A stretch of 64,000 nucleotides of DNA from a virus: IMG/VR virus record IMGVR_UViG_3300027987_000382, positions 82,840 to 146,839 of that record, one strand, 5' to 3'. The notes under the pieces were generated by a model, which saw only the letters and a list, made by a program, of their open reading frames with translations, was not told the origin of the DNA and searched no databases. The position numbers were made by a program, and so were the translations under genes. This document shows positions 15,046-61,208 of this stretch, in pieces. Position 1 is the first letter of the stretch. Every line of letters begins with the position of its first letter.

Positions 15046-15662
15046 ACGTCGAACCGCACTTCGACCCATTCGAATCCGAGTTTCTCGAGGTACTCGAGAG
15101 CTTTGTCTCCAATCTCTGGCCCGGCAAGATAGCCACGTGCTGACTCGAAGGTTTCGACGTACTTTCGCAGCTGGCCACAATCAGTGACGGTAGCTTTCCG
15201 TCTCTTCACCTCAATGACGTGCTTGGTTTCATCAAATTCTGTTCCAAGCAGGTCAATCGGGCCGTGTTCTGTCTGAACTTCGGTTTCAATGCTGAAACAC
15301 TCAATGTCGAAGTAATCTGGCCAGTTCCAAAAGAGCTTTTGTACCAACTCTTTTTCTGTTCGCCGCAATCTGACTTCGTCCTCGGACCAGCCATCCATCT
15401 CGCGGTAGAACAGAACCTCATCGACTATTACTTCTATCGTCTCACCATGTCTGGTAAAGGCAAGGCGTCCACATTCGACACTGCCTTCCATTTCTGTTCC
15501 CGCTCCCATATAGTTGCGTGGAGGTATCAGAGAGCCGCCATGGACAGATACGCTTCCGTCGTTCTTCCTTAGCAGAAGAAAGCTTCCTGGACCAAGGAGG
15601 CCCAGAGCCCGGCCATCATAGCGGACGGAGCCGGAAAAGTACAAGGAGAAGCTTTCAGACAT
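15042..15662 (-). CDS. nucS: Endonuclease NucS/EndoMS
   Basis: Y.GR...L, K.DGSV.VH, P.NY; GPIDLL, VIEVKRR, QL..Y. Confidence 0.9.
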   Translation of the reverse strand: MSESFSLYFSGSVRYDGRALGLLGPGSFLLLRKNDGSVSVHGGSLIPPRNYMGAGTEMEGSVECGRLAFTRHGETIEVIVDEVLFYREMDGWSEDEVRLRRTEKELVQKLFWNWPDYFDIECFSIETEVQTEHGPIDLLGTEFDETKHVIEVKRRKATVTDCGQLRKYVETFESARGYLAGPEIGDKALEYLEKLGFEWVEVRFDV

Positions 15663-49883: not shown

Positions 49884-50064
49884 GTTTGTGAAATACCTGG
49901 GTCTCGCATGCGGGAATGTGTGTCGAAATCCTAGTACGGAGGACCCCCGGAGGACCCAGGAATAATTCCTCTATAGGGTCCCACACGCGGAAAATATTTC
50001 TTCCGCCAGAGAGCAACCCGACCAGTACCCCGGTATATTCCATCCCCCCTCACCAATACTTAGG

Positions 50065-50132
50065 TGTTGCAAGGGGAATCCCCCCGTTAAATCCGGGTGG
50101 CGGATTTAACGAAACCCCCGCGACCGGCAACA
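50065..50132. promoter_or_regulatory. Divergent promoter motif pair on an inverted repeat
   Basis: Minus copy 50065-50090; plus copy 50106-50132; GTTAAATCCG-N5-CGGATTTAAC. Confidence 0.65.
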
Positions 50133-50163
50133 CCGCCGGTCGCGGGGGGACTCGCAGGTGCGA

Positions 50164-50436
50164 CTAGTCGTCGCTGTCGTCGGCGTCCCCGCCCTTCGCG
50201 GCCTTCTTGGCGGCGATCTCGGCGGCGATCGTGTCCTGTGCGGTCTTCAGGTGCGTCGCGGCGGTCTCCGCGTCGACGCCGGACGCGTCCTGCACGAGCT
50301 TGCTGGCGGAGCGGCGGAGCTGCATGCCGACCAGCGTGCGGGCTTCGTCCTCGGTGTTGGCCATCACGGTGTCGGCGGCGGTCTGCGTCGCACGGACGAT
50401 GGCGGCGAGAAGGGCGGCGAGTTGCTTCTTGTTCAT
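50164..50436 (-). CDS. Small helical protein, MNKKQLA paralog 1
   Basis: AGGAG RBS; promoter 50497-50522. Confidence 0.75.
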   Translation of the reverse strand: MNKKQLAALLAAIVRATQTAADTVMANTEDEARTLVGMQLRRSASKLVQDASGVDAETAATHLKTAQDTIAAEIAAKKAAKGGDADDSDD

Positions 50437-50496
50437 GTCGTGTCTCCTGCGAGAGTTGGGGTTTCGGGGGGCGGCTGTCGCCCCCTCACAATCGGG

Positions 50497-50659
50497 TGTT
50501 GCCGGACGTGTCACCGCGTTAATTCCGGACGCTGCGTCGGTCGCGGCCTGCGTCGGGGTGTTCCGAGTGAGACCAACGAGGGCGGCGACTAGGAGGAGCG
50601 TCGGGAGTGTGGCGGAGTTCGGCATACGGCGGTGTTACGAAAGGGGGCGGCTGGGTTAA
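50497..50659 (-). promoter_or_regulatory. Two promoter motif copies
   Basis: 50497-50522 and 50633-50659. Confidence 0.65.
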
Positions 50660-50747
50660 ACGTCGCCCCCGCGACTCCCAGCCGCCCCCGCAGGAGAACA
50701 AGGAACACGCACGCGTTTGCGGGGGCGACCGCGTGCGTTAAATGCGG

Positions 50748-51503
50748 TCAGGACCAGCGGTCGGCGTCGGTCGCACCGACGAGGTAGTCGGGGTTCTCGG
50801 AGAGAACCTCACGCGTCCGAGCCGCGTTCGGGTAGTCCACGCCGTAGTTGTCGGCACAGGTCTTGCCGCAACCGGCGATCTTCGATTGGACCTGCTCCAG
50901 CTTCGCGTTGCAGTAGCAGCAGTGGCCGGACTGACGCCCGATCTCGGAGATTACGCGGGCTGGGTCGGCTGCAACACGCTGCAGAATCTCGACGACCGAG
51001 GTCCCCGCGACGGACGATCGCGGCTCGAACACGTCCCCGCCGATGTAGCCGTAGAACGCACCTTCGCCGAATCGGGTGGATTGGCTGACGCCGACCGTTC
51101 CCGGTCGCTTGCCGCCTGTGTTGAGCTTGAGAACGACCGTCTGTTCGTTCGGCTCGTCACCGACCGTGAGGACGATCACGGGACGCTTGAGCGTCTGCGT
51201 GGCCGTCTGCATGTGCAGCAGGATCGACTGCATGCCGGGCACGTTCGTGCACGCGTCGCGATTTCCTGCTTGGAAACGCTCTGGGTGGTCCACCTTGGCG
51301 ACGTAGAACGCGGCCCAACTCTCGTGGTACGGCTTCCACGAGCCGTAACGCTGGAAGCCAGCGACCAAGCGTGTGGGGTGGTCGCCCACGATTTCCTGCT
51401 TGGAAATGAGGGCACGCAGGCGGTCGTACAACGCCCGCTGGTTTGGGTGATTGCTCTCGAACGTGCACTCGCCGTGTCGCGAGTTGATGGTGAATTGTGG
51501 CAT
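50748..51503 (-). CDS. DUF6011-like Zn-finger protein
   Basis: GRQSGHCCYCNAKL....S...G.G..CA. Confidence 0.8.
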   Translation of the reverse strand: MPQFTINSRHGECTFESNHPNQRALYDRLRALISKQEIVGDHPTRLVAGFQRYGSWKPYHESWAAFYVAKVDHPERFQAGNRDACTNVPGMQSILLHMQTATQTLKRPVIVLTVGDEPNEQTVVLKLNTGGKRPGTVGVSQSTRFGEGAFYGYIGGDVFEPRSSVAGTSVVEILQRVAADPARVISEIGRQSGHCCYCNAKLEQVQSKIAGCGKTCADNYGVDYPNAARTREVLSENPDYLVGATDADRWS

Positions 51504-51574
51504 CCTCGTACTCCTGCGATTTCCTGCCGGGAAAGGGGGGTGAATGGGATTCGGGGGAATCCCGCCTAGGTCCC

Positions 51575-51600
51575 TGTTGCGAGGGGAATCCCCCCGTTAA
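51575..51600 (-). promoter_or_regulatory. Promoter motif copy
   Basis: 25/26 identical to 50065-50090. Confidence 0.7.
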
Positions 51601-51812
51601 TCGAGCCAGCCGAATCTGCTGTCGAACATGAAGACGCCGATGGTGACGCTCTGCTCGTCCGACTTGACGTCGAGTTCGTCGACGGTCTCATTCGGTCCGG
51701 GGTTTCCGTCCTCGTCGGTGCTGGTAACAGCGTCTTTGCTGCACTGGATGGAGAGGGTGACCGGCAGGTCCGGTCCGGCGAGCAGCTGTCGTGCGAGATC
51801 GTGTGCTTTCAT
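51597..51812 (-). CDS. Small hypothetical protein
   Basis: MKAHDLARQLLAGPDLPV. Confidence 0.6.
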   Translation of the reverse strand: MKAHDLARQLLAGPDLPVTLSIQCSKDAVTSTDEDGNPGPNETVDELDVKSDEQSVTIGVFMFDSRFGWLD

Positions 51813-51899
51813 GGTGACCGTGTGTTGCAAAAGAGAGGAGCGGAGAAAATGAAGCCCCTCCCCGCCCCTTGCGGGGCGGTTCGGGGCGTTCGGGTGCGA

Positions 51900-52166
51900 C
51901 TAGCTCTCGTCGCTGTCGTCGCCGCTCTCGTCGGTCTTCGCGGCTTTCGCCTTGACCGGCGGCTCCTCGATGATGACGTCCTCGACCTCGACGCCCGCTG
52001 CGTCGGCGATCAGGCCCTTGTGTGCCCGGCGGAGTCGCAAGGCGAGCAGGGTGCGGGCCTCGTCCTCGGTGATGGGCGGCTCGCTGTCGGTCGCGTTGCC
52101 GTTGATCGTGGCGGCGACCGAGAGCACCATGGTCTGGACGAGGAAGGCGAGCTGCTTCTTGTTCAT
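51900..52166 (-). CDS. Small helical protein, MNKKQLA paralog 2
   Basis: GGAG RBS; promoter 52228-52253. Confidence 0.75.
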   Translation of the reverse strand: MNKKQLAFLVQTMVLSVAATINGNATDSEPPITEDEARTLLALRLRRAHKGLIADAAGVEVEDVIIEEPPVKAKAAKTDESGDDSDES

Positions 52167-52291
52167 GTCGTGTTCTCCCGAACGAGTCGTGTGGGGCGTG
52201 GCGGAAGTCGCCTCCCCGATACCCACCTGTTGCCGACCGACAGACGGCGTAAAATCCGGGGGATTCAGACCGGCAGGAGAGCCGAGACGCG

Positions 52292-52663
52292 TCAAGACGC
52301 GTCGGAATTGACCGGGGTTCGCCACTTGGCAACAGCTGTTTTGCGGGTCGGCGGCTCGTCACCGAGCATCGCGACAACCTCGCCGACCAGTTGATCCCGG
52401 TTGTTCAGCCCGATGGAGAAGTGAAGATGGGCGATCTGCTTCACACCCGGCTTGATTTCACGAGTGACGGCGACGTGCAACACCTCGCTGTTGTGAGGGC
52501 GATCGAGCATCGCGGCGGTCTCTGACGCGTCCACCTCGAGCATCGGGTGGTTCGGACTCAGGACGAGTTCCAGGGTGTCCGGCACGGTTTGCTCGTTCCA
52601 CTTGGGCGTGGTGCGGGCGACCGGATCGCTGATTCGGGCTTTGCGGTACAGTGAGAGTTTCAT
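52292..52663 (-). CDS. Hypothetical protein
   Basis: 123 aa from ATG 52663. Confidence 0.55.
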   Translation of the reverse strand: MKLSLYRKARISDPVARTTPKWNEQTVPDTLELVLSPNHPMLEVDASETAAMLDRPHNSEVLHVAVTREIKPGVKQIAHLHFSIGLNNRDQLVGEVVAMLGDEPPTRKTAVAKWRTPVNSDAS

Positions 52664-52691
52664 GGTCCCTGGTCCTGTGCTGAGTGTTCCT

Positions 52692-52733
52692 AAGAAAAGC
52701 GGCCCGCCCTCAGCCGTTGCGAGAGCGGGCCGC
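52692..52733 (-). terminator. Intrinsic terminator
   Basis: GCGGCCCGC/GCGGGCCGC stem followed by T tract on minus strand. Confidence 0.6.
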
Positions 52734-53272
52734 GTGTGCCCGTTCGTCCGGGGCGTCACTCCCGGCTTAACGACGCGTCGAGCTAGCCGTACCCAGAATG
52801 CTTCTGCAGGACGATGCCTACCGGACCGGCGAGCTTCACGAGCCGCGTCCGTAATCTGGGCGATCCCGCTCTTTGCCACGGAAGCTGTCGGGACGGGCAG
52901 CCCGTCCAGCCGACGTAGGCGGCGATCGCGATGATGAGAATGAGTCCGTACACGTCTGCGATTTCCTCACTGGAAAGCGTGGGATGGTGAATGGCGGGGC
53001 ATCACCGCCGACTGGCTTGGGTCGTGTTCGATGCCGCCAGCTAGCGTGTGTCGCGGCGGGACGCCCCGCATGCTCGTGTGTGGCCTAACGCTTCATCGTG
53101 TGTCCTCCAATGCGTGTGACTCGCGATTTCCTCACTGGAAAGCGGGGCGACCAATGGCGATCGTGGCTTGTGTTACCCTCGGCCACCAGCCGCCCCTTGC
53201 CCCCATATGTTGCGAGCCGGGGTGGGCGGTTAAATCCGACCGCCCATGCCCCCGATTTCCGCACAGGAAACC

Positions 53273-53644
53273 CTAGAAGGGTACCTCGTCGTCCCACAGG
53301 ACGCCACCGGAGCAGAGCGTGTCGCCGTCCTCGTCGACGAGGATCGTCCCGGCCGTCTCGTCGTCGTGGTGCCGCTCACTGACGATCCGGCAGAGCGTCT
53401 CATCTTCCGGCTGGCACCAGTCCGGATCGAACGCGTCCTCGAACAACTCTGGATCGAGGGGAGCCAGCTCGTCGGGGAAGGCGGACGCCATTTCGCGTCC
53501 GAACGCGTCGTAGCAGTGTTCGTGCATCAGTGATCCCCCATAGTTGACCGTTTTACCGGTCGCGGGCTTGTCGCAATAGGGGCAGTCGGGAGTCACTGTC
53601 TCCGGTCTGCCGTTTTCGTCCGTCCTTGTCGCAAGTGCTGTCAT
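53273..53644 (-). CDS. Acidic Zn-binding hypothetical protein
   Basis: CPYC...H..C, ends DEVPF; promoter 53695-53721. Confidence 0.6.
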   Translation of the reverse strand: MTALATRTDENGRPETVTPDCPYCDKPATGKTVNYGGSLMHEHCYDAFGREMASAFPDELAPLDPELFEDAFDPDWCQPEDETLCRIVSERHHDDETAGTILVDEDGDTLCSGGVLWDDEVPF

Positions 53645-53747
53645 GCCGAAAGTCTCCTGTGCCGTGTTGGCGGGGCCAATTCCCCGCATAGTCTTGTTAC
53701 GGCAATCCCCCACCCCGTTAAACACGGAGCGGGGGATTCCTAAGACA

Positions 53748-53777
53748 GTGCCGGGCACCCTTGCGGGTGCCCGGCAT
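53748..53777. terminator. Strong hairpin after the 53790 gene
   Basis: TGCCGGGCACCC-TTGC-GGGTGCCCGGCA. Confidence 0.6.
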
Positions 53778-53789
53778 CGGCTGCTGCGA

Positions 53790-55022
53790 CTAGCCGCTGT
53801 AGTCACTTCCGGTCATGTTCGCCTTGACCTTCGCGTCGATGTGGAAGTCGGCGAAGTCCTCGAACTTCTCCCGCGTCCCTTCCATGTCGTACTCGGCCGA
53901 GATGAGCGTCCCGACCCACGCGTTCAGCATGCGAGCCGACGTCGGCTCCGAGTAGTGGGTGGCGACCTCGGTCGCGAAGTTGATGGCATCGTAGACCGTG
54001 CACCGGACCGGGAGCGTCCGCTGACGCTTGATGCTGAGAGCATCGAGGTTCGCCAGTCCGTACAGGTGGTTGGTGTCGCCGGTCATCCGGTGGAACGCGG
54101 AGACGATCGGGGAGCCGATCCCCGCCGACTCGTCGTCCAAGTCGGTCTGCGAGACGCCCGCATTCCGGGAATCCTGCAGCCACTCGGTGATGCGGTTGCC
54201 GCGAGCCAGCTGCTTGTCGACGCCGATCAGCCCCTTGTTGTTGTGGAGCTTGATGATCAGCTTGTACAGCTGCGTGGACTCGTTGACGCTGCACCACGAC
54301 TCGGTGGCCGACTCCATTCGCTGCCGGAGAGCCGCGAAGCCCTCGTCGTTGCCGAATCCGTCGAGGGCACGCGTGATCGTCGGCATCACGTCGTCCGCAC
54401 CCTTCCCCAGATTCAGGGACGAGCGGAACGCCTTGGCGTAGCCGATCATGCCGTTCGCACAGATTTGGCGGAGCAGCGAGAGGTAGAAGTTCGGCGTGCC
54501 GTAACCGTCGATCGGCGTGGCCATGACGAACCGGTTCGAGAACGTGTCACCGCAAATGTCGAAGTTCGCGGCTCCGACTCGCGGGGCGTGCGTCGAGTAG
54601 ACCTCGCCGTTGGCGTAGTCGATCGACTGGCCGTTGTACCGATCGAGCGACTCCATCAACTCGTCGTGCTGCACGATCGGCTTGGTGGGATTGCTGACGG
54701 CCATCAGCGTGCTCGTCAGCTTGCCGTTCTCGTCGGTCCGCCGCTCGATGCAGAGCCGCATCCGGTCGGCCTGCTCCACGTTCGAAATCCGCTCGAACGT
54801 CTCGGCGTGGGTGAAGTACTTGAAGAACGCCTTGTTGAACCCGTAGCGGGCGAACAGGGACGTCCAGAAGCGATCGGACGGCTCGAGCGGCTCATCCTTC
54901 ACGATGACGCTCTTCACGATCGGCCGACCGCTCTTCGGATCGCTCTCCGACTCCACGACCAGATCGTTGATCGGCAGGAAGTCGTAGTCGAACCGGACGG
55001 AACTGGGTGTCGCAGCAACCAT
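53790..55022 (-). CDS. DUF932-like protein
   Basis: LLRQICANGM; TVYDAINFATE..TH; promoter 55083-55108. Confidence 0.7.
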   Translation of the reverse strand: MVAATPSSVRFDYDFLPINDLVVESESDPKSGRPIVKSVIVKDEPLEPSDRFWTSLFARYGFNKAFFKYFTHAETFERISNVEQADRMRLCIERRTDENGKLTSTLMAVSNPTKPIVQHDELMESLDRYNGQSIDYANGEVYSTHAPRVGAANFDICGDTFSNRFVMATPIDGYGTPNFYLSLLRQICANGMIGYAKAFRSSLNLGKGADDVMPTITRALDGFGNDEGFAALRQRMESATESWCSVNESTQLYKLIIKLHNNKGLIGVDKQLARGNRITEWLQDSRNAGVSQTDLDDESAGIGSPIVSAFHRMTGDTNHLYGLANLDALSIKRQRTLPVRCTVYDAINFATEVATHYSEPTSARMLNAWVGTLISAEYDMEGTREKFEDFADFHIDAKVKANMTGSDYSG

Positions 55023-55132
55023 GTCTCGTATCTCCAAAAAAGTGGGTGGAAGTGTCACCGGGGCCAATCCCCGATACTCCCCTGTTGCCAGTCCGCAGAC
55101 CGGGTAAAATCCGGGGGATTGGTCGCTGGAGA

Positions 55133-55198
55133 CCCTCCCCCATACCCTCTCCTATCTTCAAATACGTCGAGATCGACGAGAGAGGGTATGGGGGAGGG
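55133..55198. repeat. Perfect 19-bp inverted repeat with nested hairpin
   Basis: CCCTCCCCCATACCCTCTC / GAGAGGGTATGGGGGAGGG. Confidence 0.9.
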
Positions 55199-55247
55199 GC
55201 GAGCCGCCGAATTCGACAGTGACGGCTCGCCCCCAGCACAGGAAGCT

Positions 55248-56468
55248 CTAGAACCGGACGCGTCGCGGACGACCCGCCTTCGCACGATCAGTGACGAATT
55301 TCGGCATCGTCACTTCCGTCGTCGCAATGGCGACTCTCGCCCGATTGTTGATCTCCTGCAGATGCGGATTCACGGTCAACGACCGCCACTCGTCATTCTG
55401 CCAGAGATACTGCTGCTCCGGCATCGCAGTCCGAATCATCGGCCACTTCGTCGCCTTCGACTGGACCACCTGCTTGAACGGCAGAGTCGGGAACTGTCGG
55501 AACACCCGACCGGCCATCTGCATCGTCGGACCCTTGCTGGAATCCCGGACCCACACCGTCTTGAGGCTAGGATCATCGAAACCCTCGGTCAGCACCATGC
55601 AGTTGATCAGCTTGTCCGTCTCACCATTGAGATAAGCCGCCAGCTGCCGCTCCCGGTCACTGTCACCATCCACAATCGGATCGAACGTAGCCATCGCGAT
55701 CGAATCCCGATCACGGCAAGCCCGCTGATACCGCTCGAAATAGCCGCGACGGATCAAAGCATCCCGCAGCAACTGGCACTCATCCTTCGTGAGGAAGTAG
55801 AAGATCGAGCGTCCCCACTTCTCCGGATCGGAGCAGTAGAAATCCGCGACCGTCTCCGCATTCCACTTCGGCAGCGAATAGTGGTGATAACGGGACAGGT
55901 AGCCGTCCTGAATCAGCTGGTGAATCCCCGCATCCTTCACGACGCGATCGAAGCACAGCTTCACCCGGTCTTGGCGGAAGGGAGTCGCGGTGAGTCCGAG
56001 GATCAGATTCGGCTCGATGATGTTGTGCAGGTGAGCCATCGAGTTCGCAGCGTCGTGCTGAGCCTCATCGACGACCATCAGAATCGGCTTGCCGTCCTGA
56101 CGGGCTTGGACGAGATTCTCGGGATTCTTCTCGAACATCGACGTGAACTGGATGCCCGGAATCTTGATGCCGAGCGTATCGTTGGCACGAGCCGCCTGAC
56201 GGAGCAGATCGCGTCGCATCGCGACCCAACCGATCGTCAAATCCGGCATCTGGCTCTTGAGAAGAGCACACGTGACGAAGCCCATCACCGTCTTTCCGCT
56301 GCCGGTGGGACTCTCGATCATCACCGAACGGCACGCCTCAAGCACGGTGCCGTCCCCCTGCATGTACTCGCCACGAAACATGTCGTTGACTTTCGTGCAG
56401 ATCGTTGTCTGGTATGGTCGCGGTTCGATCTTCGTCCCCGCGATCACTGCTGAGATTCGCTTGCTCAT
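55248..56468 (-). CDS. SF2 DExH helicase (ResIII/UvsW-like)
   Basis: RPYQ, SPTGSGKT, VDEAQH, GLTATP.R, LTEGFD.P, QMAGRV.R; promoter 56525-56550. Confidence 0.93.
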   Translation of the reverse strand: MSKRISAVIAGTKIEPRPYQTTICTKVNDMFRGEYMQGDGTVLEACRSVMIESPTGSGKTVMGFVTCALLKSQMPDLTIGWVAMRRDLLRQAARANDTLGIKIPGIQFTSMFEKNPENLVQARQDGKPILMVVDEAQHDAANSMAHLHNIIEPNLILGLTATPFRQDRVKLCFDRVVKDAGIHQLIQDGYLSRYHHYSLPKWNAETVADFYCSDPEKWGRSIFYFLTKDECQLLRDALIRRGYFERYQRACRDRDSIAMATFDPIVDGDSDRERQLAAYLNGETDKLINCMVLTEGFDDPSLKTVWVRDSSKGPTMQMAGRVFRQFPTLPFKQVVQSKATKWPMIRTAMPEQQYLWQNDEWRSLTVNPHLQEINNRARVAIATTEVTMPKFVTDRAKAGRPRRVRF

Positions 56469-56613
56469 GATAACTCCTGTGCTGTCGAGATTTGTCCGAG
56501 GGGCTGTCGTCCCCTACACTCTCCTGTTACGAGCAGCGAATCCGGGTTAATGCTGACCCTCAAATACGCCGCAGGCCGAAGGGGATTCCCAGAATCCCCT
56601 CCGACCGTTAACG

Positions 56614-58104
56614 TCACTTCCACGCCCAATTGAAATCCTTCCGGTGATCCATCACCTTCGCAAACAGATCGGTCAGCTTCCCGGCGTACGCCTCATCGTG
56701 GACATCAAATCCCAGACCGTGAGCGAACTCGTGAACCGCCACCGACAGGATTCGATTCCGCTCGGTCAGCTGGAATCGCCGCTTCCACGACCGGCTGTTC
56801 GAATTCTGCTGCTCCACCAGACTCGCCGGAGCGATCAAATAGGTCCGCCCAAACCGTCCATCCTCGAACTGAGCTTCATCCTCTTCCGAGAACAGGAAGC
56901 CAATCGCGAAATCCGCGTCGTGGTCGAACGTTCGGTGCAGCTGCAGCATCACCCGTCCCCAAATCCGGGCCAGCTTCTGGCTGTAGCTGGAGAAGTCCGG
57001 CTCGTCCGGCCGATAGTAGGTGGGAATCACCAGATCGGTTTCGTTCTTGATCACGAATTCCTCGCTCACCGCAACCCGAACCTCCTCGACGGGAGCCATC
57101 GGAGCGTAGGCTGCCGCCTTCTGTCGCGGACGATCCACGTGTTCCTCGTGGTACTCGGTGGTACCGGTCTGTTCCTCGTGGTCCTCGACCAGATCGATCA
57201 GGACCGACTCGTCCTCGACCGGCTCCGGCTTCTCAATCTGGAGGATTGCCGACGTCTTGACCTCTCGAGCCGAGCGATGGCAGAGCCGCGAGCCGTCATA
57301 GTGGCGGTAACGCTCCTGACGGGGCTTGAGAGCCGATCGCTTGTCGACGGACAACTCGGTGACGAATGTGTCCAATTCCTGCCGCTTCGACCACTTCAAG
57401 CCGTCCCGGTTCGACTGGAGGCATTCCAGGGAGTCTTCGCTCAACTCGACCACGACGCATCGGTCCAACCCGCAGTCGCGGATGAACATCGGCTGTCCGT
57501 TGATCCGGACGACCATCTTGTACTTGGTCGACTTGTTGGTGTAGACGGTGCCGAATCCGAGATCGCGTCGCGGCGATCCCTTCCGCATGTCCGCCTTGTG
57601 GGATTCGCCGTTCCAGTAGAATGTCCCGGACCATTGGCCGTAGAGGACGAACTGGTCGAAAGCCCGCTTGAGAGCCACTTCGTGCTCGCCGTCAATGACG
57701 ATTGTGGACGACGTCCCGCGAGTGTAGCCGTTGTCGACGAGATCGTAGTCGCCGCCGCGTCCCTTGACGCACAGCTCGCCGGAGTGAATCTCATAGGATT
57801 CGTGGCAGAAGTAGAGGATCTCTTTGGCTTTGCCGAATCCGCCGGTGTTCCCTTCCCGCTCGTCCTTGCCGGACGATCCGAGGGAGAGCAGCTTGCCGAT
57901 CAGGACCTCTTCGGTCATTGGCGAGCCGTCATTGGTGACGGTGACGATCGTCTGGCCGTTCTCGATGGCGACGGTCCATTGGATGGTGCGTGAGTCGCAG
58001 TCCATGCCGTTCTGGTTGAACTCGCGGACGATCGCCCAATGCCAGTCGTTGTAGTCGTTCTTGGCTTTGGCGAAGAATTCGGGGCCGATGCTGATTTGCG
58101 GCAT
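56614..58104 (-). CDS. GHKL (HATPase_c) ATPase with C-terminal HExxH motif
   Basis: REFNQNGMD, NDG.PM, GGFG.AK, GT; VHEFAH...H; promoter 58159-58185. Confidence 0.8.
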   Translation of the reverse strand: MPQISIGPEFFAKAKNDYNDWHWAIVREFNQNGMDCDSRTIQWTVAIENGQTIVTVTNDGSPMTEEVLIGKLLSLGSSGKDEREGNTGGFGKAKEILYFCHESYEIHSGELCVKGRGGDYDLVDNGYTRGTSSTIVIDGEHEVALKRAFDQFVLYGQWSGTFYWNGESHKADMRKGSPRRDLGFGTVYTNKSTKYKMVVRINGQPMFIRDCGLDRCVVVELSEDSLECLQSNRDGLKWSKRQELDTFVTELSVDKRSALKPRQERYRHYDGSRLCHRSAREVKTSAILQIEKPEPVEDESVLIDLVEDHEEQTGTTEYHEEHVDRPRQKAAAYAPMAPVEEVRVAVSEEFVIKNETDLVIPTYYRPDEPDFSSYSQKLARIWGRVMLQLHRTFDHDADFAIGFLFSEEDEAQFEDGRFGRTYLIAPASLVEQQNSNSRSWKRRFQLTERNRILSVAVHEFAHGLGFDVHDEAYAGKLTDLFAKVMDHRKDFNWAWK

Positions 58105-58262
58105 GTTGGGCGTCCTGTGCTGGAGGAAAGAATGGGGCTGTCGTCCCCGATACTCTCCTGTTGCGAATCCCCCTTAGCCGGTAAATCTGGGGTACCTGAT
58201 ACGCGAACGGCCCGCCAGATTTCTCTGACGGGCCGTCGCTGTTCGCACTGGTCTGCGGCGAA

Positions 58263-58934
58263 TCAGACCTTCACGTACTGCACGCAACCGGAGCCGATCG
58301 CCTCGCAGACTTGCCGCATCTTCCCGGCGTTCTTCCCGGCGATCAGGGCGAGCCGCTGGAGCACTCCCGGACGGTAGGACCGCTTCACTTCCGCGTCGAG
58401 CAGAGCGTCGGCCTCTTCGTCGTTGATGGTGCCGGTCTCGGTCAACTCAGCCATCGCGGCTTCGATGTGCTTGCCGAGAATGTCCATCACGCCGTCCTTC
58501 GACAGAACGGAGCGGTCGAAACCGAAGACCGTCTCTTCGTAGACCAGCTCGTTCGCACCGTCCTCGCCGAGCAGCTGCGTGAGAGCAGCCAGCGAGTCGT
58601 CTTTCACGCCGTATTGGTTTCGCTCCTGAACCACGAAGGTGACGTTCTCACCCTCGCTGTTCTGGACCTTCATCGGCGTCTCCGGGAACACGCCGCTGTC
58701 GGCGTACTGCTGGTAGAACGAGTCCTTCGCGAAGTTGAGAACGACCGTCTTGTGGACGCCCATCTTGGCGTTGATCGCCTTCACCTGAGCGTTCAACTCG
58801 GTCAACTCGTGCACGGACTTCGCCACCTTGTCGGCATCCGGATTACCGACCGCCCACAACGTCTGCTTCTTCGCGGGTTTCGTCGACGCCGACTTCTCCG
58901 CCTTCTTCGCCGCAGCTTTCGCAAACACGCTCAT
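58263..58934 (-). CDS. Hypothetical protein
   Basis: GGAGG RBS; promoter 58999-59024. Confidence 0.75.
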   Translation of the reverse strand: MSVFAKAAAKKAEKSASTKPAKKQTLWAVGNPDADKVAKSVHELTELNAQVKAINAKMGVHKTVVLNFAKDSFYQQYADSGVFPETPMKVQNSEGENVTFVVQERNQYGVKDDSLAALTQLLGEDGANELVYEETVFGFDRSVLSKDGVMDILGKHIEAAMAELTETGTINDEEADALLDAEVKRSYRPGVLQRLALIAGKNAGKMRQVCEAIGSGCVQYVKV

Positions 58935-59099
58935 GAGAGCACCTCCAAAAGGGAACATAGCTGTCGCTCGCGGCTCACACCGAGCCGCTTCCCCCGCGTG
59001 TTGCGAGACCGGACCTGCCGTAAAATCCGGGGTACCGACCGGCTGCCGCGACCATCCGGGAAAGACGAACGCGTGCGATTGCCGTACCGGGAACCCCCG

Positions 59100-59402
59100 T
59101 TAAATCGGCTCGTCCCAATCCCTCACAGGACCGGTGGTTGGCTTGGTTGCCGCTTCACACTCTGAAATACGGCACGCCATCACCCCTGATTCCTTCCGGA
59201 CGGTATTCCCACTCCCCTGCTCCAGAGCCACAACAAGATCACCCACAGTCCTACAACCGGGGTTCGCCTCCTTGAGCTTCTCGAGCACCTCATCATCATC
59301 GTAGAAATCGTCCATGTCCGCCTGAATGCTCACCACCTGCTCACCGCGTCTCACACGGATTTCAGGATGGTACGCAACAACCTTGCGACCTAGCTTTTCC
59401 AT
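59100..59402 (-). CDS. Hypothetical protein
   Basis: GGAG RBS. Confidence 0.55.
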   Translation of the reverse strand: MEKLGRKVVAYHPEIRVRRGEQVVSIQADMDDFYDDDEVLEKLKEANPGCRTVGDLVVALEQGSGNTVRKESGVMACRISECEAATKPTTGPVRDWDEPI

Positions 59403-59428
59403 TTACCAGACTCCCATATCCTGCAACA
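59402..59428 (+). promoter_or_regulatory. Promoter motif copy
   Basis: TTTAC-N16-GCAACA. Confidence 0.6.
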
Positions 59429-59470
59429 AAAAGGAGGAATCCCCATTCACGTATTTGAGGAACTGACAAC

Positions 59471-60175
59471 ATGCAACTGAAAGTCGAAAGCACCCGGTAC
59501 ATCTTTCCGCCACGGCCACAATCCGCGATGCCGTTCAACGACGTCGTATTCTTCACGGAAGTAGGCTGGGGCTGGCAGTACAAAGTCAACGACAGCCGAT
59601 GCGAGATCAAGTATCTACCAGATGGCAGCGTCGAACTCTGGAACCGACACGCCGAACGATTCCGATCCTACCACTGCCCAGACTGGCTCGAAGACCAACT
59701 CCTCGCAGTCCGCGACCAACTCGGTCTCAGCAGTTCCGAGTACCACCTGCTCGACGGCGGACTCTACGACCAGAAACACGCCGCGATCAAAGACACCATC
59801 GTGATCTGGGACATTCTGGTGCGAGACGGAATGCACCTGCTCGGCACCACCTACAAAGAACGATTCGACAGCATCGCCACCGGCACCACACCCTACAACT
59901 TCAGCCACGAAACCTACGAACACCCCATCCAATTCGGACTCTGCTACGAGGACACCCCCAACGTCTTCCACCTTGAATGGAACCCCTGCGGCGACCCACG
60001 CTCTTGTTGGGACATGGTACACGTCATCAACAAGCCATTCGACGCCAACAGCCCGCTGATCGAAGGAATGGTCTTCAAAGACCCAGACGGACGCCTCGAA
60101 ATGGGCATGAGCGAAAAGAACAACGAAAGTTGGCTCTGCCGGACCAGAGTCAAGACCGGACGTCACCCATTCTAA
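59471..60175 (+). CDS. ATP-dependent ligase/capping-type nucleotidyltransferase, adenylation domain only
   Basis: QYKVNDSR (I), LLDGGL (III), IWDIL (IIIa), EGMVFK (IV). Confidence 0.75.
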   Translation: MQLKVESTRYIFPPRPQSAMPFNDVVFFTEVGWGWQYKVNDSRCEIKYLPDGSVELWNRHAERFRSYHCPDWLEDQLLAVRDQLGLSSSEYHLLDGGLYDQKHAAIKDTIVIWDILVRDGMHLLGTTYKERFDSIATGTTPYNFSHETYEHPIQFGLCYEDTPNVFHLEWNPCGDPRSCWDMVHVINKPFDANSPLIEGMVFKDPDGRLEMGMSEKNNESWLCRTRVKTGRHPF

Positions 60176-60229
60176 CGGAGAACCTCACCACAACCGGGGA
60201 ACAATCCCCAAACCGAACAGGAGGACAAC

Positions 60230-60760
60230 ATGTCCCACACCGCAGAAACAGCCCGCAAAACCGCCAAGAAATCCTGGGCACGGGCAAACCGCCTCGCCGA
60301 ACTCACCGGCCACGAAAAATCCGCCGACTGCCGCACCTACCTCGCGAGCCTGAACGGCACGAGCAATAAGGAGATCCTCGACACCAGCAAAGACGCTCGG
60401 ACCCGAGACATCCGAGAACTCATGGAAGGATTCACCACCTGGTACGAAGGCGGCGGCAGGTCCCTCCACGCCGGAGGCAAAGGCCAAACCCGCCGGAGCA
60501 AGGGCGACACATCCCGCCCACCCAGAGCCGGAGCACCAAATCCCCGTAACGGAACCGCCAAGCGACAATCCAGGGGACATGCCCACATCACCGCCGAGCC
60601 AATCTACCAGCTTCGCAAAATCCAGAAGCAACACGACCTCAGCATCGAAGACCTCGCCCACTGCGTCGAAGTCCTAGGACGCATCGTAGAAAGCCCCCTC
60701 AACGTCGACCAATTCCTCCGAGACGTCAAAGCGGACCGCAAAGCCTCCGCCTCCATCTAA
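60230..60760 (+). CDS. Basic hypothetical protein
   Basis: AGGAGG RBS. Confidence 0.7.
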   Translation: MSHTAETARKTAKKSWARANRLAELTGHEKSADCRTYLASLNGTSNKEILDTSKDARTRDIRELMEGFTTWYEGGGRSLHAGGKGQTRRSKGDTSRPPRAGAPNPRNGTAKRQSRGHAHITAEPIYQLRKIQKQHDLSIEDLAHCVEVLGRIVESPLNVDQFLRDVKADRKASASI

Positions 60761-60780
60761 GACGTCCTCATTTCGGCAGA

Positions 60781-60815
60781 GACGCCCACGGTCGCCAATG
60801 GTGCCCGTGGGCGTT
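60781..60815. terminator. Hairpin between the 60230 gene and array 3
   Basis: GACGCCCACGG-N13-CCGTGGGCGTT. Confidence 0.55.
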
Positions 60816-60825
60816 CTCATAGGTG

Positions 60826-61168
60826 CGATTTCCTCTCAGGAAAGCCCATCGGGCACCAAACCCAACCTAACCACACCTAAACGAACCCTCCGAACCTGTC
60901 CACGTACAACGCGGACCCCTGCGATTTCCTCACAGGAAACCCAGGCCCATCGGACCCCCTACCGAACCGCCCGGAACTGGACTCACCGGACTACGCTCTA
61001 GCCGGAACGATCCCTACCGCTCAAACGCGTACTCGTACGCACAGGACCACGGGCAAACGGGCAGCCGCGATTTCCTCCCAGGAAACCCGTAAGGTCCCAA
61101 TACCGACCGAGGCTTCACTTGACACACCCTGGCGAACCTGTAAACGCCCACGATTTCCTCGGAGGAAA
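60826..61168 (-). ncRNA. Pentamer/hairpin array 3: 3 units bounded by 4 CGATTTCC-N5-GGAAA motifs
   Basis: Cores 60845, 60946, 61086; motifs 60826, 60922, 61068, 61151. Confidence 0.75.
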
Positions 61169-61182
61169 CCACAATACGCTCC

Positions 61183-61208
61183 TGTTGCCAAAAGGCCCCA
61201 CGAGTTAA
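61183..61208 (-). promoter_or_regulatory. Promoter motif pointing into array 3
   Basis: TTAAC-N15-GCAACA-N5-GTAT on minus strand. Confidence 0.7.

Follow-up and report, generated by a model that had tools for sequence, protein, structure and literature searches.

In mycobacteriophage L5 (Cluster A), the operators and stoperators of temperate-phage immunity are 13-bp non-palindromic sites bound by the repressor gp71. At the RNA level, the boxB hairpin of phage lambda, which has a 5-bp stem and a purine-rich pentaloop G-A-A-R-A, lies downstream of early promoters and upstream of terminators, and the type I-F CRISPR repeat, with a 5-bp stem and a 5-nucleotide (nt) loop, is cut by a Cas6-type nuclease. 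Precedents for RNA punctuation are Cas6 cutting CRISPR repeats, RNase III acting between T7 genes, and mitochondrial tRNA punctuation. Among published phage repeats, the start-associated sequences (SAS) of Cluster K mycobacteriophages have the 13-bp consensus GGGATAGGAGCCC and are found 3–8 nt upstream of starts in one orientation (PMC3203893), and the PeSLs (promoter early stem-loops) of T4-type phages are composite promoter-terminator units, tens of bases long, that have been proposed to drive recombination (Arbiol et al. 2010, PMC2839356; PMC4122927). Here we describe D1, as we name an 18-nt motif repeated in a 64-kb stretch of the virus record IMGVR_UViG_3300027987_000382; this stretch, called the window below, is the final 64 kb of the 146,839-bp record, which is approximately 41% complete. 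The papers that we found on similar repeats concern other sequences in other phages, and D1 is new and well supported, and belongs to a general kind of regulatory repeat that is already known. It is a genuine signal, probably read on RNA, and two of its features are unusual: within one gene it is kept in more than one reading frame, and copies of it flank guide RNAs.

The initial annotation had listed ten co-oriented copies of CGATTTCC-N5-GGAAA and had noticed none in the first 50 kb. The window contains exactly these ten matches, all on the plus strand, compared with 0.01 predicted from shuffled sequences (Table 1), and the whole record contains the same ten and no others, with a reversed-pattern control of zero; this is far above background and confined to one block. 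The palindromic core TTTCC-N5-GGAAA yields no additional copy in the window, and a search allowing up to two mismatches added a single degenerate copy inside the block (59076) and a few scattered matches outside it without any functional sign. All D1 sites lie within or at the edge of the block at 50–61.2 kb, spanning 51.2–61.2 kb, and the G+C content of this block is 57–65% versus approximately 51% elsewhere. The genes at 50–59.4 kb, the promoter-like boxes and the array at 61.2 kb all point leftward, that is, they lie on the minus strand, and D1 should therefore be read as TTTCC-N5-GGAAATCG; the common orientation noticed at first thus stands, and the reading strand is corrected to minus. 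In the sense of transcription the consensus is TTTCC-A-R-N-N-A-GGAAATCG, preceded by a purine R.

D1 is conserved in 11 related records, including two complete giant phage genomes (356 and 408 kb), and the block proteins are 30–67% identical between the window and these two genomes. A two-site pattern scan of the viral collection identified the complete 355,825-bp phage (L010), which has four block genes in common with the window (30–43% protein identity) and 13 core sites, 11 of them in one stretch of approximately 38 kb across the assembly junction. The 408,349-bp genome was found with a profile of the 425-aa block protein (67% identity); it contains 12 core sites, and a 7-kb stretch accounts for seven of these. 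Reversed-pattern controls are zero in both genomes, and most sites surround a shared helicase block. The DUF6011-like protein of 251 aa has 51 homologs, many of them spanning the whole query, and DNA was recovered for nine: close relatives (53–71% protein identity by TBLASTN) have 9, 10, 6, 5 and 7 D1 sites in 6–16 kb, and distant ones (39–45% identity) have 9, 5, 3 and 1. A peptide-pattern search with this protein in the viral collection found no relatives, and a strict 15-base pattern scan of the same collection gave, among the matches listed, almost exclusively single and presumably chance occurrences. TBLASTN of the 496-aa block protein against cultured phages gave no match.

The compiled set comprises 81 D1 sites from 13 loci, and both 5-base arms are effectively invariant in it. 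When all hairpins of 5 bp with a 5-nt loop and a following TC were counted, TTTCC/GGAAA accounted for 61 and the next most frequent stem for two. Four one-mismatch stem variants retain the consensus loop and flank, two of them being TTTCT, which still pairs as U-G; no other 5-bp stem with the same loop and flank and no compensated variants were found. One locus, L021, has at positions 2429–2446, in the counterpart of the window site 53253, a hybrid TTTCC-AAGGG-GGGTA-TCG, the right arm of which resembles the GTATCG of the promoter-like box described below; both repeat families end in ATCG.

The loop and the flanks, counted at the 68 sites outside the DUF6011-like gene, are asymmetric. Of the 68, 54 have A and none has G at loop base 1, 65 have a purine at base 2 and 54 have A at base 5; bases 1 and 5 are complementary in just 13. 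Positions +1 to +3 are T, C and G in 58, 59 and 52 of 68 sites, and the left flank is not the mirror of this pattern. Position −1 is a purine in 45 of the 58 TCG-flanked sites (A in 20, G in 25; p = 4e-6) and, with the in-gene sites excluded, in 39 of the 58 sites with T at +1 (p = 0.004); A or G opposite a fixed U is the pattern expected of a sixth pair, A-U or G-U, in RNA. The array sites extend to a predicted 8 bp including G-U pairs, with a folding energy of −8.3 kcal/mol as RNA versus −3.9 as DNA, and may also be described as a 6-bp stem with a 3-nt loop. The orientation agreed with the gene direction wherever it was checked, including minus-strand stretches in the related loci L027 and L029. 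Since the loop and one flank are asymmetric and always oriented along transcription, the hairpin is best explained as being read on the transcript strand. The operator of a symmetric dimeric regulator, one of three functions suggested by the initial annotation, fits poorly with the rarity of complementary loop edges.

Selection on the motif can be seen in the DUF6011-like gene, where the sites 51259 and 51389 had been placed by the initial annotation, which had also stated beforehand that a lack of conservation at synonymous sites in homologs of this gene would speak against a signal. Both sites are indeed located in the minus-strand open reading frame (ORF) 50748–51503, which is a real gene as judged from its many full-length homologs. 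In a codon alignment of seven such genes, site A has the form xTT TCC NNN NAG GAA ATC G in six, always with the codons TCC, GAA and ATC, and site B is kept in all seven, in five of them as CGT TTC CAN NNA GGA AAT CG. In locus L026, CA replaces the final CG of site B (flank TCA); in L021, the same eighteen nucleotides are present with the register shifted by one base and are read F-S-K-Q-E-I-A. The homologs P0002 and P0010 have the same frame shift of site B, as judged from their peptides. At both sites every specified base is kept, third codon positions included. This conservation of synonymous positions, together with the frame shift in L021, demonstrates selection on the nucleotides and not on the peptide. 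The 408-kb relative lacks site A and retains site B and the site in the 5' untranslated region (UTR); distant homologs (at most 45% identity) have neither in-gene site, yet D1 is present elsewhere in their genomes. A spacing of approximately 129 nt, seen three times, was considered as a repeat unit and rejected, being dictated by the coding sequence and variable in relatives; Tandem Repeats Finder also reported no tandem repeat of about 129 nt.

Sites between the units of an array had also been reported initially, and at 60.8–61.2 kb four D1 copies bracket three non-coding guide-RNA-like units, that is, there are n+1 hairpins for n units. Each unit consists of a 5' hairpin, a tract with a 5-nt GG periodicity and a tail hairpin, the same architecture as that of the vrRNA guide RNAs of VIPR systems (bioRxiv 10.64898/2026.04.26.720920). 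The D1 spacing in the array is irregular (83, 146 and 96 nt), and the last copy is found approximately 10 nt ahead of a terminal hairpin. D1 was rejected as a standard component of the VIPR vrRNA tail, because it is absent from some guide units (two arrays are without it). Searches of the D1 surroundings against Rfam gave no match at curated or relaxed thresholds, in the window or in the loci of ten relatives, and ribozyme covariance models matched neither the window (gathering score or E up to 1) nor the ten relatives' loci; a self-cleaving ribozyme between the guide RNAs, hammerhead or other, was rejected on this ground. ARAGORN identified no tRNA in the window. A tRNA-like element that is not called by ARAGORN (26.5 bits versus the Rfam threshold of 29) was seen at L026 273–341, exactly between D1 sites at 250 and 357, and the D1-bearing stretch of the 356-kb relative contains a transfer-messenger RNA-like gene and five tRNA genes (L010 3493–9212).

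Overall, D1 is found in four contexts: before starts, after stops ahead of terminator hairpins, flanking guide-like units, and inside coding sequence. About one third of the sites lie 2–8 nt ahead of a start codon, too close for a further ribosome-binding site to fit in between; five cassettes of the 356-kb relative are arranged in this way, as is the membrane-protein gene in four genomes, and in the window this 56-aa membrane-protein gene has D1 only and no other ribosome-binding site. The DUF6011-like gene has its own AGGAG besides the D1 at 51517. A D1 copy 0–4 nt past a stop, directly ahead of a terminator-like hairpin, is found at 53253 in the window and at 15434 in the 356-kb relative, and L027 has this arrangement at four genes in a row. 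In several places the order is stop, D1, start, or D1, short leader ORF, D1, gene. In a crude ORF-based count, which the high G+C content makes noisy, a start codon lies within 14 nt downstream of 45% of the D1 sites versus 20% of random positions, a stop codon is adjacent to 22% versus 12%, and 24% versus 42% lie purely inside an ORF.

Table 1. D1 sites and associated features of the window (positions in the 64-kb stretch).
Feature	Coordinates	Strand	Remarks
DUF6011-like gene, 251 aa	50748–51503	−	three D1 sites in or beside it
D1 site B, in coding sequence	51259–51276	−	frame different from site A; reads R-F-Q-A-G-N-R
D1 site A, in coding sequence	51389–51406	−	reads I-S-K-Q-E-I-V
D1, 5' UTR of DUF6011-like gene	51517–51534	−	40 nt past GCAACA box, 16 nt ahead of ATG
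56-aa membrane-protein gene	52783–52953	−	
D1 ahead of membrane-protein gene	52959–52976	−	GTG 8 nt from GGAAA
3-codon mini-ORF	53085–53096	−	M-K-(R/Y/F)-stop type, own GGAGG
D1 in leader transcript	53124–53141	−	27 nt ahead of mini-ORF
GC-rich hairpin after D1 53253	53224–53245		loop contains next TTTAAC box
D1 past TAG stop of gene 53273–53806	53253–53270	−	2 nt past stop; GC-rich hairpin follows
Degenerate D1-like copy	59076–59093	−	TTCCC-GGTAC-GGCAA-TCG; upstream of gene 58263–58958
Terminal hairpin of array	60781–60815		
Fourth array D1	60826–60843	−	immediately after unit 3 tail hairpin GCCCGATGGGC
Three guide-RNA-like (VIPR vrRNA-like) units	60844–61150	−	each bracketed by D1; 5-nt GG periodicity
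Third array D1	60922–60939	−	after unit 2 tail hairpin
Second array D1	61068–61085	−	immediately after unit 1
First array D1	61151–61168	−	14 nt past GCAACA box; 8-bp hairpin predicted near transcript 5' end
Promoter-like box of array	61169–61208	−	CTTAAC-N15-GCAACA, putatively driving array
Other promoter-like boxes (examples)	52213–52265; 55068–55120; 58144–58196	−	
MNKKQLA-type genes	50164–50436; 51900–52166	−	paralogs, ~90 aa, acidic products
Inverted repeat	55133–55198		19 bp, perfect; 28-nt loop
496-aa protein gene	56614–58104	−	

Two regulatory repeats that D1 resembles in placement differ from it in structure. Like the L5 stoperators, D1 occurs in many dispersed gene-border copies co-oriented with transcription, as seen for the ten window sites and the oriented sites of the relatives, and by analogy this suggests a polar action on transcription; unlike them, it is palindromic with asymmetric extras, and the phage parts examined contain no lysogeny module. 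With the Cluster K SAS and ESAS (extended start-associated sequences), D1 shares the character of a short, clade-specific asymmetric repeat, nearly always along transcription, that is confined to the non-structural part of the genome and found a few bases before the starts of unrelated genes (Pope et al. 2011, PMC3203893). However, the D1 sequence does not match that of the SAS: D1 is a perfect 5-bp inverted repeat and contains AGGA, not AGGAG; it is also found after stops, between non-coding units and inside a gene, the position upstream of starts being that of only about one third of sites; and the D1 phages are uncultured giant phages, not mycobacteriophages.

Other likenesses concern RNA hairpins and the layout of the block. 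As in Cas6-cut CRISPR repeats, identical hairpins with an invariant stem and a conserved 3' tail bracket variable guides, n+1 for n; D1 differs from them in the irregular spacing (83–146 nt), in flanking protein genes at most sites, and in its absence from two guide arrays of the phage. Compared with lambda boxB, the D1 loop is A-R-N-N-A, no boxA was seen, the copies number dozens, and even distant phages share one and the same stem. No gene resembling Cas6 was found, the neighboring ORFs having no informative family and remote RAMP homology not having been tested by structure. Small elements bracketing variable guide units are also known from hammerhead-interspersed VIPR guide arrays (bioRxiv 10.64898/2026.04.26.720920). 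The single small genes with their own promoter box and hairpin resemble those associated with PeSLs, and the PeSL-bounded hyperplastic regions are the T4-type counterpart of the block layout around D1, whereas D1 itself is a separate 18-nt element that is also kept in coding sequence (PMC2839356; PMC4122927).

If D1 acted on DNA, it could be a phage repressor site at which RNA polymerase is stopped in a polar manner, as at L5 stoperators, so that the early block, here of a lytic giant phage, is switched off. We consider this a serious alternative to action on RNA and possible, with some doubt. The arms are invariant over the 81 sites without compensatory change; the sites are dispersed through transcription units, at gene borders and along transcription, as in L5; and two of them (L030 8386 and L027 20629) begin right after a −10-like hexamer, others lying 14–59 nt downstream of promoter boxes. 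However, loop bases 1 and 5 that are mostly both A, and a TCG conserved on one side only, are at odds with a symmetric dimer; the equal frequency of G and A at −1 points to G-U pairing more than to a mirrored half-site; a roadblock has no obvious use a few bases ahead of an intrinsic terminator, where six or more sites are found; and no repressor candidate was found. These terminator-proximal sites would be equally useless for a promoter, for instance a DNA-hairpin promoter like that of the phage N4 virion RNA polymerase producing near-leaderless mRNAs, even if the hairpin structure, the conserved 3' flank, the distance of a few bases to many starts and, at the array sites, the 6-bp stem with a 3-nt loop are reminiscent of one. 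The genes are already preceded by a separate box TT(T/A)AC-N15-GCAACA, and the phage RNA polymerase families PF00940, PF00562 and PF00623 gave no match in the record of the window and in the two complete relatives, which is weak evidence, since divergent polymerases could escape and the PF00940 search matched no control genome and is hence uninformative; a promoter is very unlikely. Still less credible is a role near the strand-skew switch as iterons of an origin or as partition (centromere) sites, the second function proposed by the initial annotation: the repeats are partly palindromic and one cluster is located at the skew change near 61.2 kb, but the sites extend over 10 kb here and, in the complete relatives, over roughly 40–55 kb, are placed at the starts and stops of genes, lie in GC-rich DNA without a dense AT-rich cluster, and follow the direction of transcription even where neighboring genes converge. 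Chi-like protection sites pointing at genome ends were rejected as well, since the ends of the complete relative are assembly ends and the orientation follows genes.

The alternatives at the RNA level account for parts of the distribution. In a translational operator, or a start-associated ribosome-binding hairpin, (A)GGAAA in the 3' arm would be a weak Shine-Dalgarno sequence that the 5' arm hides, and a protein or an upstream ribosome would open or lock the hairpin. The start-adjacent third of the sites, with no room for another ribosome-binding site, the stop-D1-start and leader ORF-D1-gene arrangements, and the precedent of the Cluster K sequences (PMC3203893) are in line with this, but the sites before terminators, between non-coding units and inside a gene are left unexplained, and D1 offers only AGGA at a longer distance, compared with the strong AGGAG or GGAG at 6–8 nt that other genes of the block carry; we regard this function as improbable for D1 as a whole. 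Pairing with the 16S rRNA beyond AGGA was judged by eye and rejected. An analogue of the nut site, in which a protein bound to a boxB-like hairpin lets RNA polymerase read through the cassette terminators, would be consistent with the comparable geometry (a 5-bp stem and a purine-rich 5-nt loop) and with sites that follow promoter boxes and immediately precede terminator hairpins. It is nevertheless quite improbable: a GNRA-like fold would begin with G, whereas loop base 1 is A; on the 5' side of the stem, positions are not conserved and no partner resembling boxA was seen; the sites far outnumber those of a lambdoid phage, which has two; a protein like N was not found; and the bracketing of three units by four sites is not accounted for.

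We tentatively favor the reading of D1 as a protein-read RNA hairpin in the transcripts of one gene block, most likely a processing ("punctuation") site. Of the three functions initially proposed, an RNA hairpin for processing or antitermination fits best, given the asymmetric loop and flank and the positions at starts, stops and array borders. The hairpin would consist of R-UUUCC paired with GGAAA-U, an A-R-N-N-A loop and a single-stranded CG tail, and a sequence-specific protein would read the invariant stem, the loop edges and the 3' tail. As the sites are located exactly at the borders of functional RNA segments, endonucleolytic punctuation would be the likeliest action: cuts would split long or read-through transcripts into single mRNAs and single guide RNAs, and the in-gene copies would shut down the DUF6011-like message. 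Whereas the motif itself, with its conservation, asymmetry and placement, is observed, action on RNA is an inference, and cleavage and the reader are proposals. In a more specific form, which we consider unlikely as it stands, D1 would be the recognition hairpin of a dedicated endoribonuclease, with a RAMP/Cas6-like or the DUF6011-like protein as a candidate, that punctuates early transcripts of a giant-phage clade and, through one CRISPR-repeat-like signal, releases guide RNAs, trims mRNAs to their coding parts and feeds back on its own mRNA. The sole reason to consider the DUF6011-like protein as a reader is that three sites are found in its own message.

Several observations weigh against D1 being a processing hairpin. 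The basic hairpin is weak (−3.4 kcal/mol), and without compensatory stem changes the invariant arms fit a DNA-binding protein equally well. The asymmetry counts are partly circular, as sites were oriented by the same loop and flank features that were then counted. At the two sites abutting a −10-like hexamer the transcript would miss the 5' arm, and the position is typical of a DNA operator. The guide-RNA arrays at 47.2–47.7 kb and 48.7–48.8 kb have no D1, their tail hairpin being followed by a T-run; D1 is therefore dispensable for guide-RNA maturation in general. Finally, no nuclease or RNA-binding protein was identified among the block proteins, which gave no informative family or fold match.

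The block consists of promoter-gene-terminator cassettes of single small genes and is probably an early, host-takeover region. Its promoter-like box TT(T/A)AC-N15-GCAACA is followed by GGAGAGTATCGGGGA and a 5' hairpin and has seven minus-strand copies, found in the block only. The spacer of the box is 15–16 nt, the copies range from 50044 to 61208, distant relatives have GCCACA instead of GCAACA, and the box does not match a sigma-70 promoter. The block proteins include one ResIII helicase and one weak metalloprotease-like match; the others had no match. For the DUF6011-like protein, there was no Pfam match, and PHROGs matches were without known function; its AlphaFold model is confident (pLDDT 92.8), and the best Foldseek hit in PDB had E = 0.17, with no informative fold match, the best hit of a wide structural search had Z = 5.1 on a helical piece, and ESM Atlas links the protein only to uncharacterised DUF6011 clusters.

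Other features of the block were also noted (Table 1). The 496-aa protein is conserved in all relatives; its N-terminal motifs resemble a GHKL-type ATPase by eye, and its C-terminus has a weak HExxH metalloprotease-like match (Peptidase_M10, E = 4e-4). The two paralogous genes of acidic proteins starting with MNKKQLA have near-identical starts and upstream sequences, and the family recurs in the early regions of relatives, often in two copies. The conserved mini-ORF M-K-(R/Y/F)-stop with its own GGAGG, found also in L024 (~565–590) and L026 (~90–105), is flanked by two D1 sites, precedes the small membrane-protein gene and could encode a leader peptide controlling this gene. The perfect inverted repeat that precedes the 425-aa gene may function as a strong terminator or as a structured element; its weak microRNA-like Rfam score is surely due to chance.

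Knowledge of this giant-phage clade comes from metagenomes only, and almost none of the genes in the block has a known function. One 18-nt signal at the borders of genes and VIPR-type guide RNAs thus provides a handle on the first wave of expression. If D1 is an RNA processing tag, it would link mRNA maturation with guide-RNA maturation in a CRISPR-like phage system and would provide a small RNA tag that can be moved to other settings together with its protein partner. As a polar DNA roadblock, D1 would carry the principle of stoperators over from small temperate phages to giant lytic ones. In both cases, D1 may help in identifying its reader and in marking out the early region of newly found genomes.

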